Below, in pieces: positions 405 through 62,446 of a DNA stretch of 64,000 nucleotides (positions within the stretch are counted from its first letter, which is position 1; every line of letters begins with the position of its first letter). Both the position numbers and the translations under genes were made by a program. Below the pieces are notes generated by a model, which was not told the origin of the DNA, did no database searches, and saw only the letters and a list, made by a program, of their open reading frames with translations. This DNA comes from Eledone cirrhosa (lineage: Eukaryota): positions 27,094,001-27,158,000 of the forward strand of contig OZ024747.1 of NCBI GenBank assembly GCA_964016885.1, read 5' to 3'.

Positions 405-539
405 TATATTTCGTTTCTGAATTTGTTTAGCAAGATTCTTTATCTGAAATCGTGTGTTGAAACCGATATTGTTATACTTTGGGAGGGTCATGTTGCCAAT
501 GCTTATTGGCAACATGACCCTCCCAAAGTATAACAATAT
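405..539. mobile_element. Minimal PLE remnant: tail plus perfect 35-bp-arm palindrome of the pLTR end
   Basis: 466-500 and 505-539 are exact reverse complements around a GCTT loop; sequence resembles PLE termini at 17109, 27846 and 29724. Confidence 0.8.
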
Positions 540-3500
540 GTATATGTATATATATATGTATATATATATGTATATATATATGTATATATATGTATATGTA
601 TATATATATATATATGTATATATATGTATATGTATATATATATATATATGTATATATATGTATATGTATATATATATATATATATATATGTGTATATGTA
701 TATATATATGTATATATATATATATATATGTATATATATATATATATATATGTATATATATATATATATATGTATATATATGTATATATATATATATGTA
801 TATATATGTATATATATATGTATATATATGTGTATATATATGTATATATATATGTATATATATATGTATATATATATGTATATATATATATATGTATATA
901 TGTATATATATATGTATATATATATATATGTATATATGTATATGTATATATGTATATATGTATATATATATGTATATATATATGTATATGTATGTATATG
1001 TATATGTATATATATATGTATATGTATATGTATATGTATATATATATATGTATATGTATATATATATGTATATGTATATATATATGTATATGTATATATA
1101 TATGTATATGTATATATATATATGTATATGTATATATATATGTATATGTATATATATATGTATATGTATATATATATGTATATGTATATATATATATGTA
1201 TATGTATATATATATGTATATGTATATATGTATATGTATATATATATGTATATGTATATGTATATGTATATGTATATATATATGTATATGTATATATGTA
1301 TATGTATATATATATGTATATGTATATATATATGTATATGTATATATATATATATGTATATATATATGTATATATATATATATGTATATATATATATATA
1401 TGTATATATATGTATGTATATATATGTATATATATATATGTATATATATATATGTATATATATATATGTATATATATATATATATATATGTATATATATG
1501 TATATGTATATATATGTATGTATATATATATATATATATATATGTATATATATATATATGTATATATATGTATATATATGTATATATATATATATGTATA
1601 TATATATATATGTATATATATGTATGTATATATATGTATATATATATATGTGTATATATATATATGTGTATATATATATATGTGTATATATATATATGTG
1701 TATATATGTGTATATATATGTATATATATATATATGTGTATATATATATATGTGTATATATATATATATGTATATATATATATATGTATATATATATATG
1801 TGTGTATATATATATGTGTATATATATATGTGTATATGTATATATGTATATGTATATATGTATATATATATATATATATGTATATATGTATATGTATATA
1901 TGTATATATGTATATATATATATATATATATATGTATATGTATATATATATATATGTATATATATATGTATATATATATGTATATATATATGTATATATA
2001 TATATATATGTATATATATGTATATATATATATGTATATATATATGTATATATATATATATATGTATATATATATATATGTATATATATATATATATATA
2101 TATGTATATATATATGTATATATATATATGTATATATATATATGTATATATATATATGTATATATATATATGTATATATATATATGTATATATATATGTA
2201 TATATATATATGTATATATATATATGTATATATATATATGTATATATATATATGTATATATATATGTATATATATATGTATATATATATGTATATATATA
2301 TGTATATATATATGTATATATATATATGTATATATATATGTATATATATATATGTATATATATATGTATATATATATATGTATATATATATGTATATATA
2401 TATATGTATATGTATATGTATATATATATATGTATATATATGTATATATATATATATATGTATATATATATATATGTATATATATATATGTATATATATA
2501 TGTATATATATATATATATGTATATATATGTATATATATATATGTATATATATATGTATATATATATATATATGTATATATATATATATGTATATATATA
2601 TATATATGTATATATATATATATATATGTATATATATATATATGTATATATATATATATATGTATATATATGTATATATGTATATATATGTATATATATA
2701 TATTATATATATATATATGTATATATATATTTATATGTATATATATATGTATATATATATATGTATATATATATATGTATATATATATATGTATATATAT
2801 ATATGTATATATATATATGTGTATATATATATATGTATATATATATATGTATATATATATGTATATATATATGTATATATATATGTATATATATATGTAT
2901 ATATATATGTATATATATATGTATATATATATGTATATATATATGTATATATATATATGTATATATATATATGTATATATATATGTATATATATATGTAT
3001 ATATATATGTATATATATATATGTATATGTATATGTATATATATATATGTATATATATGTATATATATATATATATGTATATATATATATATGTATATAT
3101 ATATGTATATATATATGTATATATATATATGTATATATATATATGTATATATATATATATATGTATATATATATATGTATATATATATATCTATATATAT
3201 ATGTATATATATATATGTATATATATGTATATATATATATGTATATATATATGTATATATATATATGTATATATATATGTATATATATATGTATATATAT
3301 GTATATATGTATATATATATATGTATATATATATATGTATATGTATATATGTATATGTATATATATATATATATGTATATATATATGTATATATATATGT
3401 ATATGTATATATATATATATATGTATATGTATATATATATATATATGTATATATATATGTATATATATATGTATATGTATATGTATATGTATATATATAT

Positions 3501-3691
3501 GTATATGTATATGTATATGTATATATATATGTATATGTATATGTATATGTATATATGTATATGTATATGTATATATGTATATGTATATATGTATATATAT
3601 ATGTATATGTATGTATGTATATATATATGTATATGTATGTATATATATGTATATATATATATATATGTATATATATATGTATATATATGTA
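540..3691. repeat. (TA)n/TATG irregular microsatellite, ~3.1 kb
   Basis: Directly visible; source of spurious Y/I/M/C/V ORFs. Confidence 0.98.
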
Positions 3692-4260
3692 TGTACAACC
3701 TGTCTCATGGTCGGGTCGTTGGCGACTAAACTGGCAACCCCTCCAATTTTCTTGGTGAGGAGGGTGTCTTTGGACATCCTGCAGGACTAAAAACAAAACC
3801 TGTCAAAGGGCAAAGCAGCTCTTGAGAGTCAATGGCCATCCAAAATCACCGGGAGAGATGACCCCTTAGCCTTTGTCAAGGCAGAATTCTAGGAGAAGGA
3901 AAACTCTGATATAACACCTGCAACCCTGATGGTATCCAATGATGTTGACTTGTTCTTCTTTTTGGTAAATATCATCTTGGTTAAGAGAGTAGGACTGGCT
4001 TTGTGCAGTGCCTTTGCTCACTATAAAAGCTTCACGGCACAGGCATTGCTTTATATCTGGAGATCTCTCTGCATTTGTCGTCACATGGTACCATTGGCCC
4101 AGCACTGTGTTTTCAATCATTGTCACAAGTGTAGTGTTTGTACTAGAGTTTTCAAGTCACTGGCTGGACTGAAAAGTCACACTCGTTCAGCGCATCGGTA
4201 GGGGTTCTCCTACATGGATATAAAGTAGTGGCCGTACTCGAAAACGAGTTGGCAGCCACT
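3692..4260 (+). mobile_element. Non-autonomous bipartite RTE-derived element, copy 1
   Basis: Near-identical to 61551-62135 and 33045-33431; 3' part encodes [25 protein letters not shown] (C2H2 finger like RTE ORF2 C-termini); CTCG-AAAA-CGAG stem-loop; TA flanks. Confidence 0.75.
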
Positions 4261-4832
4261 ATGTATATATATGTATGTATATATATATGTATGTATATAT
4301 ATATATATATATGTATATGTATGTATGTATGTATATATATATATATATATATATATATATATATATATATATATGTATGTATATGTATGTATGTATATAT
4401 ATATATATATATATATATGTATGTATATGTATGTATGTTATATATATATATATATATATGTATGTATATATATATATATATATATATGTATGTATATGTA
4501 TGTATGTATATGTATGTATGTATATATATATATATATATATATGTATGTATATATATATATATATATATATGTATGTATATGTATGTATGTATATATATA
4601 TATATGTATGTATGTATATGTATGTATGTATATATATATATATATATATATGTGTATGTATGTATGTATGTATGTATGTATATATATATATATATATATA
4701 TATATATATGTATGTATATATATGTATGTATATATATGTATGTATATATGTATATATATATGTATGTATATATATGTATGTATATATGTATGTATATATG
4801 TATATATATGTATGTATATATATGTATGTATA
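4261..4832. repeat. TA/TATG microsatellite
   Basis: Directly visible. Confidence 0.97.
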
Positions 4833-60764: not shown

Positions 60765-61030
60765 AATAGTCAGCAATTTGCTAGCCAGTGTCCCCTAAGC
60801 TGAATAGTGAAAACACACCTCTAGCACTCAGCAGTCGGCAGTCTCATCGTTAGTGCCATCTTAACTGGGCAGTAAAAACACCTCTGGCTCTCAGCAGTCT
60901 GTTAGCCAATGTCACTTTAATTGAGCAGTAAAAACATACCTCCGGCCCTTAGCAGTCTGTTAGTCATGGTCACCTTAGTTAAGCAGTAAAAACATGTCTC
61001 TGGCCCTCAGCAGTCTGTTGGTCAGTATCA
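60765..61030. repeat. ~60-bp degenerate tandem repeat, ~4 copies
   Basis: CAGCAGTCTGTTAG..CTTAA..GCAGTAAAAACA..CTCTGGC recurs. Confidence 0.7.
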
Positions 61031-61550
61031 TCCAGATGCATGGACTGGTTATGAAGATGCAGTCTCTTTTTGTTTTTTGTTTAAAGGTATGCTGTACCTA
61101 TATAATCAAAAGGGTTAAGTAAAGTTAGTTAAATTTTTAGAATGTTTCTGACTGAATATATATATATATATATATATATATAATATAAAATTAAGAATTT
61201 TATTTCTTGCCCTAGCACAGCTGATACATAAATGTAAGTATCCATACATACACACACACACATATATATATACATATGTATGTATGGGTTATATCAAACA
61301 TTGATAATAATATACATTGGCTGAGGGTAATGACCCAGAAACATATCGATTGTCCTTCAAAGCCAGTGTTGAACAAACCAAACAGGTGATGATCAGTCAC
61401 CGGCATGGCACAGCTTTAAACCGGGCCATTTGTTTCAAAATGAATTGAACATTATTATCAATGTTCAATATAATCCATACGTACATATGTATAGTGTGTG
61501 TGTGTGTGTGTGTGTGTGTGTGTGTGTGTGTGTGTGTGTGTGTGTGTGTG

Positions 61551-62135
61551 TTACTGGTAACATGTATCCCAGTACAACCTGTCCCATGGTCGGGTCGTTG
61601 GCGACTAAACTGGCAACCTCACCAAGGTTTTTGGTGAGGAGGGTGACTTTGGACATCCTGCAGGACTAAAAACAAAACCTGTCAAAGGGCAAAGGAGCTC
61701 TTAAGAGCCAATGGCCATCCAAAATCACGAGGAGAGATGACTCCTTAGCCTTTGTCAAGGCAGAATTCTAGGAGAAGGAAAACTCTGATATAACACCTGC
61801 AACCCTGATGGTATCCAATGATGTTGACTTGTTCTTCTTTTTGGTAAATATCATCTTGGTTAAGAGAGTGGGACTGGCTTTGTGCAGTGCCTTTGCTCAC
61901 TATAAATGCTTCACGGCACAGGCATTGCTTTATATCTGGAGATCTCTCTGCACTTGTCATCACATGGTACCATGGGCCCAGCACTATGTGTCAATTGTCA
62001 CAAGTGTAGTGTCTGTACCAGAGTTTTCAAGTCGCTGGCTGGACGAAAAAGTCACACTCATTCAGCGCATCGGTAGGGGTTCTCCTACATGGATATAAAG
62101 TAGTGGCCGTACTCGAAAACGAGTTGGCAGCCACC
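61551..62135 (+). mobile_element. Bipartite RTE-derived element, copy 3 (longest)
   Basis: Matches 3692-4260; lies between (TG)n and (TA)n; diverged head in reverse at ~63600-63775. Confidence 0.8.
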
Positions 62136-62239
62136 ATATATATATATATGTGTGTGTGTATATATGTATGTACATATGCATACTTATATATATATATATA
62201 TATATATATATATATATATATATATATATATATATATAT

Positions 62240-62446
62240 ATAGGAAAAGAGTCAGGATCCGGACAGCTGAGCTCCGGCCGTTTCGACAGCTAGATCTGAA
62301 CAGTTCGGATCTAGCTGTCGAAACGGCTGGAGCTCAGCTGTCGGGGTCCTGACTCTTTTCCTATTACCCACTCTACTACTCAAAGTATTGAGTACTCTGG
62401 TGCATTATGGTCGTCCACCTGGATTCTTACCACACTTTCTTTGTTA
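62240..62446. mobile_element. GC-rich ~124-bp hairpin plus ~83-bp tail between (TA)n tracts
   Basis: 62240-62363 is self-complementary with 4 mismatches; its termini recur fused at 38039-38090. Confidence 0.7.

Follow-up and report, generated by a model that had tools for sequence, protein, structure and literature searches.

How palindromes with a single protruding tail come to be embedded repeatedly in (TA)n microsatellites is the question raised by a 64,000-nt stretch of Eledone cirrhosa DNA (the window), which carries six such features that share no obvious sequence. Endonuclease-bearing (EN+) Penelope-like elements (PLEs) insert as a unit composed of a pLTR, an adjoining inverted 5'-truncated copy, and an optional tail at one end (PMC3846280; PMC8557442), and the origin of both the tail and the inverted pLTR has been described as an open mechanistic question (PMC8557442; PMC11167929). 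The tailed layout, which the original prediction gave as a trait of Drosophila Penelope, is indeed known there but is general to PLEs (PMC8557442; PMC3846280; PMC11167929), for which two start sites have also been published. The structures of the window are probably the insertion footprints of several EN-bearing PLE families and one retrozyme, left by dimeric cleavage, priming at two sites, and head-to-head joining.

Self-comparison of the masked window, together with direct reading, revealed an inverted arm and a one-sided tail at (TA)n in all six features (Table 1), as had been predicted, except that the untailed end of the palindrome at 60068-60450 lacks (TA)n in the window copy. The tail of the family A element measures 43 nt when a shared ATAT is assigned to the arm. 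This copy retains the RT C-terminus and GIY-YIG domain (28037-29197) and has lost the linker region (aa about 1056-1122 of the intact 1217-aa frame); Pfam returned for the window's coding fragment a weak RVT_1 match (E 0.0027) below the cut-off. An Rfam search of the whole window and 15 family ends identified no hammerhead; its only matches, miRNA-type and below threshold, were to TA tracts and hairpins.

Table 1. Insertion footprints and associated motifs in the window (T, tailed end; U, untailed end).
Feature	Position	Strand	Details
T/U stub, Neptune-type family A2	409..539	.	T end 409, U end about 539; arms 470-535; tail 409-469, equal to ORF codons about 8-27, minus strand
Hydra-clade family F11, 3' UTR only	11168..12411	-	T arm 1243 nt, T end 11168; tail 11168-11253; U arm 29 bp, 12383-12411, paired with 11254-11282 (100%)
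F11 bulged hairpin 1, directly beyond U site	11222..11246	-	
F11 type I hammerhead motif	11290..11361 (limits approximate)	-	Stems 8/3+/3
Family A fragment terminating at U site	12434..13474	-	Internal fold 13314-13357
F38 (423-nt retrozyme), rearranged copy	15900..16516	.	Tail continues into next unit at 16145-16516
Family A fragment terminating at T site	17109..18555	-	
Neptune-type family A element	27846..29721	+	Tail 27846-27892; inverted arm 27893-28038; pLTR arm up to U end 29721; arms 27893-28038/29577-29720, 98% identity
F62 stub, 50 nt	38041..38090	.	Inverted tail fragment fused to internally deleted U arm; (TA)n both sides
F38 retrozyme T/U palindrome	38096..38830	.	Palindrome 38194-38684, continuing via TA-like arms to about 38096-38772; hammerhead core near 38537 on plus arm; tail reaches T end 38830
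Second F38 T/U insertion	46477..47000	.	Left arm exceeds one unit
F60 T/U palindrome	60030..60450	.	Tail 60030-60067; arms 60068-60450, 99% identical; centre is a recurrent short natural palindrome
Hydra-clade F62 T/U palindrome	62243..62444	+	Arms 62243-62361 (hammerhead 3' half); tail 62362-62444
F62 bulged hairpin 1, directly beyond U site	62370..62393	+	

Of the six features, five derive from coding GIY-YIG PLEs, as 3' ends that have undergone 5' truncation, and represent five families, three of Neptune/Nematis type (A, A2, and F60) and two of the Hydra clade (F11 and F62). Upstream walks from the units at 11168 (F11), 60068 (F60), and 62243 (F62) each reach the family's own RT/GIY-YIG ORF, and the units are short because truncation falls inside 3' UTRs of 0.5-1.4 kb. 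A single ORF encodes RT followed by GIY-YIG, seen as an intact 1217-aa frame in family A and as RT and EN in one frame in F11; in F62 and F60, EN lies upstream of the arm and pieces of RT lie farther upstream. The feature at 405-539, originally taken for a remnant of the PLE near 27.8 kb, proved to belong to a sister family with its own coding members (97.8% identity to A2 versus 84.9% to A). By its CX2-5CxxC linker before GIY-YIG, each of A and F60 is assignable to the Neptune or Nematis clade, and the CxCx5C linker of the F11 and F62 parents assigns both on motif grounds to the Hydra clade, which comprises C-terminal EN+ PLEs and for which an Octopus bimaculoides member is listed (PMC8557442). 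The two parents also share with that clade the RW motif and the preference for (TA)n targets, and have putative hammerheads as its members do (PMC8557442); of the clade's RWK-like and DKT motifs and the CxxC and CxH that surround its E and N residues, reading by eye showed RLRWT, SDKT, CNLC, and CLH in F11, and RLRWR and CNLC in F62, with DKT not seen.

The canonical EN+ PLE organization, a pLTR with optional tail and an inverted 5'-truncated copy, is present here, down to the head-to-head orientation, the one-ended tail, the palindromic junctions, and the (TA)n targets, and in family A the pLTR and tail overlap the start of an ORF that has an N-rich insert. Three properties differ from published descriptions of such units: tails span 27-140 nt rather than 30-40 nt, the tailed end is paired almost invariably with an untailed one although the tail is described as optional, and most copies are stubs of 100-600 nt present in very high number.

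Each family terminates at two sites, one tailed (T) and one untailed (U), and the tail corresponds to the stretch of RNA that separates U from T and continues, in read-through copies, into the 5' UTR or ORF. Tail length is family-specific, as the original prediction required. Family A counts against a simple two-site scheme in having two T sites 12 nt apart; reference matches of this family ending at -223 were discarded as microsatellite noise. Over all loci scanned, many of the tallies being drawn from the best 20-30 matches of a search, 113 pairs comprised 111 TU, one UU, and one TT, the last of which consists of two abutting TU elements. The pattern persists in pairs outside the window chosen without tail bias (TU in 37 of 39; p about 1e-9 against 0.5), and exact 26-mers for one F62 subfamily, counted across the genome, found 1596 U ends together with 1670 arms bearing a tail, with all nine inverted neighbours among the 194 matches listed on contig 1 being TU. 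The near-universal occurrence of TU in two-armed insertions likely reflects copying begun by two enzymes, at two marked positions of the element RNA.

A candidate for such a mark is a bulged hairpin (RCTC/GAGY with a 2-nt bulge) located 0-9 nt beyond both U and T in five Hydra-type families, that is, in all five such families having a read-through copy. It occurs in 12 of 29 tail representatives and in none of 29 arms, against a shuffling expectation of 0.005, and its two copies are spaced 83-90 nt apart. Both copies can also be recognized by eye in the published sea-cucumber consensus Hydra-1_Ajap, where the accessible text of PMC8557442 makes no mention of them. Protein-coding constraint was rejected as an explanation of the tail hairpin, both hairpins of F11 and of F62 lying upstream of the ATG. 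In A, A2, F60, and F38 no such hairpin was detected, no read-through copy of F60 being among those seen, and their tails are therefore not explained by it. Descriptor searches recovered a candidate hammerhead of canonical form in F11, a U3-A8 variant, of a kind already described (PMC4209133), in F62, and, in A2, a core whose stem III is weak; the descriptors used recovered none in A or F60. Neither the strict T/U pairing nor the twin hairpin was found in the published literature.

These observations suggest a route in which a PLE protein dimer would cut both strands of (TA)n and both DNA ends would prime reverse transcription at two fixed sites, U and T, of the element RNA. A single RNA may serve both primings, and the hairpins may be the marks at which the protein binds and so fix where synthesis starts, in which case the tail would be as long as the distance between the hairpins. 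The two truncated cDNAs would be joined head to head through microhomology or end joining. In its strongest form, this is an obligate two-headed integration in which a dimer binds one RNA through two tandem hairpins and each protomer starts a few bases 5' of a hairpin on one end of the double-strand break, a process that would have written about 200,000 lopsided palindromes and mobilized retrozymes too; we consider this version evenly balanced between being right and wrong. The closest biochemical parallel is PAc (Poseidon of Anolis carolinensis), for which in vitro work has demonstrated that both strands are cut and extended from two RNA sites bounding the tail, with an AT-rich target, a binding signal downstream of the start, and a predicted dimer (PMC11167929). 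The main text of that study reports neither the coupling of each site to a DNA end nor a repeated RNA motif.

The most serious competitor is a single priming event after which the cDNA, bent back at a local palindrome, serves as its own template, the endonuclease then cutting the product at U to leave a one-sided tail, with the hairpins serving as cleavage or resolution signals. Self-priming (PMC3846280) and resolution of the tail by the endonuclease (PMC8557442) have both been proposed in print, and fold-back predicts strict TU, identical arms, and the equal arm lengths seen in 110 of 143 elements. Arms of one insertion do carry the same subfamily variant (mean 1.6 differences within versus 4.8 between, 25 parsed pairs), although one F62 insertion (L353) combines arms from two subfamilies, which counts against a single RNA. 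Against fold-back, 10 of 143 elements have a U arm that extends beyond the T arm in the 5' direction, 9 of 143 show the reverse, and in F62 the T arm lies entirely within the tail in 4 of 61 pairs; these asymmetries in both directions and the tail-confined arms indicate that neither arm is simply copied from the other. Unequal arms can also arise from later deletions, as occurred at 38041-38090 and in the window's family A copy, and an apparent tendency to longer U arms disappeared under a stricter test (10 versus 9) and was dropped. Centres recur at short natural palindromes, as fold-back would have it, but 36 of 83 resolved centres have only 0-2 unpaired bases and hot-spot centres occur with the central base in both complementary forms, a pattern more readily explained by two cDNA ends annealing than by a fold-back loop. 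In addition, starts at both tail ends have been observed directly in vitro (PMC11167929), and the same hairpin follows both T and U, sites at which fold-back calls for priming and for cutting, respectively. Fold-back is for these reasons considered doubtful, and two-site priming is preferred.

That one master PLE mobilizes unrelated non-coding passengers, as originally envisaged, or that short hairpin-plus-tail units spread themselves as non-autonomous elements, is improbable. The family ends have no sequence in common, as expected of passengers, yet five of the features have ORF-bearing families of their own and the passenger reading is refuted for them. Self-spreading might draw on the 62243 unit, many copies of which share a fixed centre and whose palindromic transcript could in principle regenerate itself; junctions vary widely, however, when the search does not select for a fixed centre, and the linear parent of this subfamily is common among the matches listed.

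Only the 423-nt hammerhead repeat F38 fits a non-coding passenger, and no coding parent was found for it in the loci seen. Like metazoan non-LTR retrozymes, it is a non-coding tandem unit with no ORF and one type I hammerhead motif (stems 6/2/2 for the core of the window copy), and PLE mobilization of such elements has been argued from co-occurrence, hammerhead type, and pLTR homology (PMC7229834; bioRxiv 10.64898/2026.07.22.740005). F38 adds that the insertion ends themselves bear the T/U footprint: in 32 of 36 matches the tail lies ahead of the start of the unit, the U-to-T distance is about 47-52 nt in place of the extension of about 62 nt first estimated, and 28 arm-anchored insertions scored by eye included 16 TU, no TT, and no UU. 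TT ends at two of eight tail-anchored loci inspected count against strict pairing, and no PLE partner emerged among 93 endonuclease-linked UTRs. F38 likely borrows PLE enzymes for its mobilization.

Fold-back artefacts of assembly, MITEs flanked by TA target duplications, and fold-back after insertion in unstable (TA)n are scarcely credible readings. Some palindromes are near perfect (99%), and none of the reads or contigs listed spans the 60068 palindrome from end to end, but older copies show 1-15% divergence between their arms, and each family has its own two end sites. Raw short reads of other samples contain these ends and the strand switches as well, which refutes an artefact at the family level, and the asymmetric ends and arms that are 3' UTRs of RT-encoding elements do not suit the terminal inverted repeats of DNA transposons. 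The read support asked of these palindromes thus exists at the family level, as Illumina reads contain, for F60, loose ends that are joined to TA at 60064 and rich in TA at 60019 and, for the 62243 (F62) family, U ends along with joints at which the strand switches.

The extent of the footprint was gauged from 80 evenly spaced 10-kb pieces of the genome (800 kb), which contained 106 non-overlapping inverted repeats. An end lies within 10 nt of (TA)4 in 72 of these, compared with 1.3% of background positions, and in 58 of the 72 the other end is 20-170 nt from TA (22% in matched background). The lopsided tailed layout accordingly accounts for 58 of the 106 repeats and extrapolates to roughly 200,000 genome-wide. 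The predicted TA enrichment was borne out. The original interpretation is partly supported: it was right that one PLE-type mechanism produces all of these structures, targets (TA)n, and is the main source of palindromes in Eledone cirrhosa, and wrong in taking the families for non-coding passengers of a single element.

The strict T/U pairing and the twin hairpin, which crosses phyla, make two predictions that are directly testable in vitro, and the T/U footprint provides a sequence test for non-coding repeats that travel with PLE enzymes. Repeat pipelines could misclassify such units as MITEs, SINEs, or unknown elements. For the genome of Eledone cirrhosa, the footprint reveals where over half of the inverted repeats sampled come from.

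Tailed inverted repeats are real and widespread in the 3.0-Gb genome of Eledone cirrhosa; both their architecture and the class to which it belongs are known already. All six of the tailed inverted features named in the original prediction were found in the window (27094001-27158000), about one-third of which is TA-type microsatellite (21,573 of 64,000 bases). The proposed association of such ends with TA runs also withstood a test against chance in 80 evenly spaced 10-kb stretches, 60 of them drawn from the four largest contigs. From 173 inverted-repeat matches, 129 lacked a TA run inside and had flanks that could be measured, and 106 of these were non-overlapping; (TA)4 lay within 10 nt of an end in 72 of the 106, versus 1.3% of background positions. 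In 58, TA lay at one end and 20-170 nt from the opposite one; the remainder had both ends at TA (6), one at TA with the other at a different distance (8), or neither (34). The 64 tailed or both-ended repeats formed 32 clusters, and at least one tailed repeat was present in 31 of the 80 stretches. Scaling from 58 per 0.8 Mb gives roughly 217,000 tailed inverted repeats genome-wide (bootstrap 146,000-296,000), a rough figure defined solely by distance to TA.

The families behind these features were traced through 20-30 loci each, taken as the best matches of genome searches. The element at 27.8 kb belongs to family A, a Penelope-like element (PLE) of Neptune/Nematis type with an intact 1217-aa frame elsewhere in the genome, and is a copy that has been truncated and has lost internal sequence; its tail encodes N-terminal codons, as is likewise described for rotifer PLEs (PMC3846280). 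A2, the sister family of A, shares 63% protein identity with it. In F60, the family of the 60068 palindrome, the sequence upstream of the arm continues over 1.2 kb into a GIY-YIG frame whose linker reads CX4CxxC. The F11 element extends into a reverse transcriptase (RT) and GIY-YIG frame with a CxCx5C linker; in read-through copies the ORF starts about 85 nt beyond the tail, and in 13 of 19 further copies the tail sits immediately upstream. The F62 arm, traced upstream via one longer copy, reaches a separate CxCx5C endonuclease, and its tail continues to an ORF start in 12 of 19 copies. Linker and endonuclease motifs of this kind define the Hydra clade according to PMC8557442. No meaningful DNA similarity was detected among the five family ends compared. 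Five of the six features are thus truncated ends, each of a coding family of its own, and one is a passenger; the suggestion that several non-coding passengers are mobilized thus holds for a single family of the six, the 423-nt repeat F38.

Features of the window and of loci (L-numbers) retrieved or sampled from the same genome
Feature	Coordinates	Remarks
Family A copy	window 27846-29721	PLE
Family A2 stub	window 405-539	Sister of A
F11 element	window 11168-12411	Hydra clade
F60 palindrome	window 60030-60450	
F62 element	window 62243-62444	Hydra clade
Degenerate TA arrays	window 536-3695, 8677-11167, 20786-27845, 29721-32403	2.5-7 kb, directly at PLE ends
47-bp repeat	window 43050-44173	24 copies, 97% identity
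Related older units	window 48474-48662; 63779-63994 (inverted)	Related to 47-bp repeat
1.6-kb duplicate	window 6545-8133, 19215-20785	98.5%; LINE-type RT region, minus strand
LINE-type RT frame	window 4224-6233	Further frame
560-nt repeat	window 3698-4259, 33048-33430, 61577-62134	Same terminal base before TA-type arrays in 3/3; no inverted partner for the three copies
Palindrome	window 36592-36753	Centred on (TA)n(CA)n run; layout unlike T/U units
Intact family A frame	L188:2143-5796 (-)	1217 aa; long asparagine-rich stretch before RT; within tandem array
~470-nt tandem repeat	L186:7700-8660; also L226, L235, L019	Non-coding; hammerhead core; T/U ends
310-nt unit	L208:8302-9922, L279:8744-9732	Inverted arrays between TA runs (random sample)

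Every family has two end sites, T at the end of the tail and U 36-82 nt upstream; in family A, half of the T ends use a second site 12 nt further on. Both sites are joined to TA; at tail-unbiased F62 loci this holds for 52 of the 56 T ends and for 45 of the 51 U ends. Across 281 loci (1.5 Mb), with self-matches and known duplicates excluded, inverted pairs were 111 TU, one UU and one TT. By design, this count leaves out any pair enclosing a TA run, among which are three that belong to the window. The sole TT pair consists of two abutting TU elements. Once tail-anchored searches and the window were removed, 37 of 39 pairs were TU. Exact 26-mers, used as an independent test, matched 1596 U ends and 1670 tail-bearing arms; among the 194 matches listed, all 9 inverted neighbours were TU.

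F38, the retrozyme, largely follows the same arrangement. Its units at 38 kb and 46 kb are built from a 423-nt tandem repeat whose tail continues into the next unit; the repeat has a hammerhead core and lacks any ORF. By eye, 28 arm-anchored insertions yielded 16 TU, no TT and no UU pairs, and TT ends were seen at two of eight tail-anchored loci inspected. PLE coding matches occurred in 5 of 29 arm-anchored loci, all outside the element. The bases just past the U site of the ~470-nt repeat resemble those of F38, and both carry the octamer motifs ATGCAAAT; transcription of newt satellite 2 is reportedly driven by an octamer. PMC13282606 lists Penelope families of an octopus without describing T/U anatomy.

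Tails in the random sample often open with RCTC, with GAGY downstream. A strict hairpin descriptor, requiring a stem of 4 bp, a bulge of 2 nt with T first and pairing in the upper stem, matched no more than 14 nt from the arm end in 12 of 29 tail representatives and in 0 of 29 arms, against 0.005 expected by shuffling and 23 of 20,000 genomic 75-mers; it had no match in A, A2, F60 or F38. In all five families with a read-through copy, hairpins lie 0-7 nt past U and 4-9 nt past T; a Hydra-type endonuclease is linked to four of these families. Upper stems vary in sequence with pairing kept, the outer pair being A-T or G-C. By eye, in the supplement of PMC8557442, the Hydra-1_Ajap consensus carries both hairpins at its start, before its ATG, and that of Hydra-2_Ajap one at its end.

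In raw Illumina data of one further study, where many family copies are pooled, loose ends occur at the F60 U site (207 and 228 reads, with TA as the consensus) and past the F60 T end (240 and 235 reads); the same data contain U ends and strand-switch joints of F62. At the 60068 locus, a unique contig spans the right junction alone.

The existence of coding parents, the two end sites, the pairing of T with U, the junctions with TA and the placement of the hairpins are shown directly, whereas the way in which the arms arise is inferred. The main rival explanation is self-priming followed by endonuclease resolution, as proposed in PMC3846280 and PMC8557442. Both arms of an insertion carry the same subfamily variants (25 pairs parsed). 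Of 149 elements, six had no self-match; in the other 143, arms were equal in 110, U longer in 10, T longer in 9, mixed in one and in no class in 13. The T arm lay wholly within the tail in 4 of 61 F62 pairs. Centres were resolvable in 83 of 125 short elements, with 0-2 unpaired bases in 36 of the 83, although many of the F62 cases had been selected by the query; either central base occurs at hot-spot centres. Taken together, these observations are read here as the product of two cDNAs, each copied from RNA, whose 3' ends became joined; later deletions weaken this argument. At L353, the two arms of an F62 insertion come from different subfamilies, and a short A/AAT run separates them. Many F62 arms break off at one shared position within stem II of the hammerhead, about 137 nt ahead of the T end, so that the hairpin has a fixed size; this position may mark a strong stop or the 5' end of an RNA.

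For a PLE of another clade, predicted to act as a dimer, in vitro work shows cleavage of both strands and their extension from two sites within the RNA that delimit the tail (PMC11167929). In the two-cDNA reading, each DNA end would take one of two RNA sites, a single RNA would serve both primings, the hairpins would position the two enzymes, and the two cDNAs would then anneal or undergo ligation. A search of the openly accessible literature found neither obligate pairing of T with U nor the twin hairpin described. With these two features, the pairing rule and the repeated hairpin, the question of how the PLE tail originates becomes open to test.
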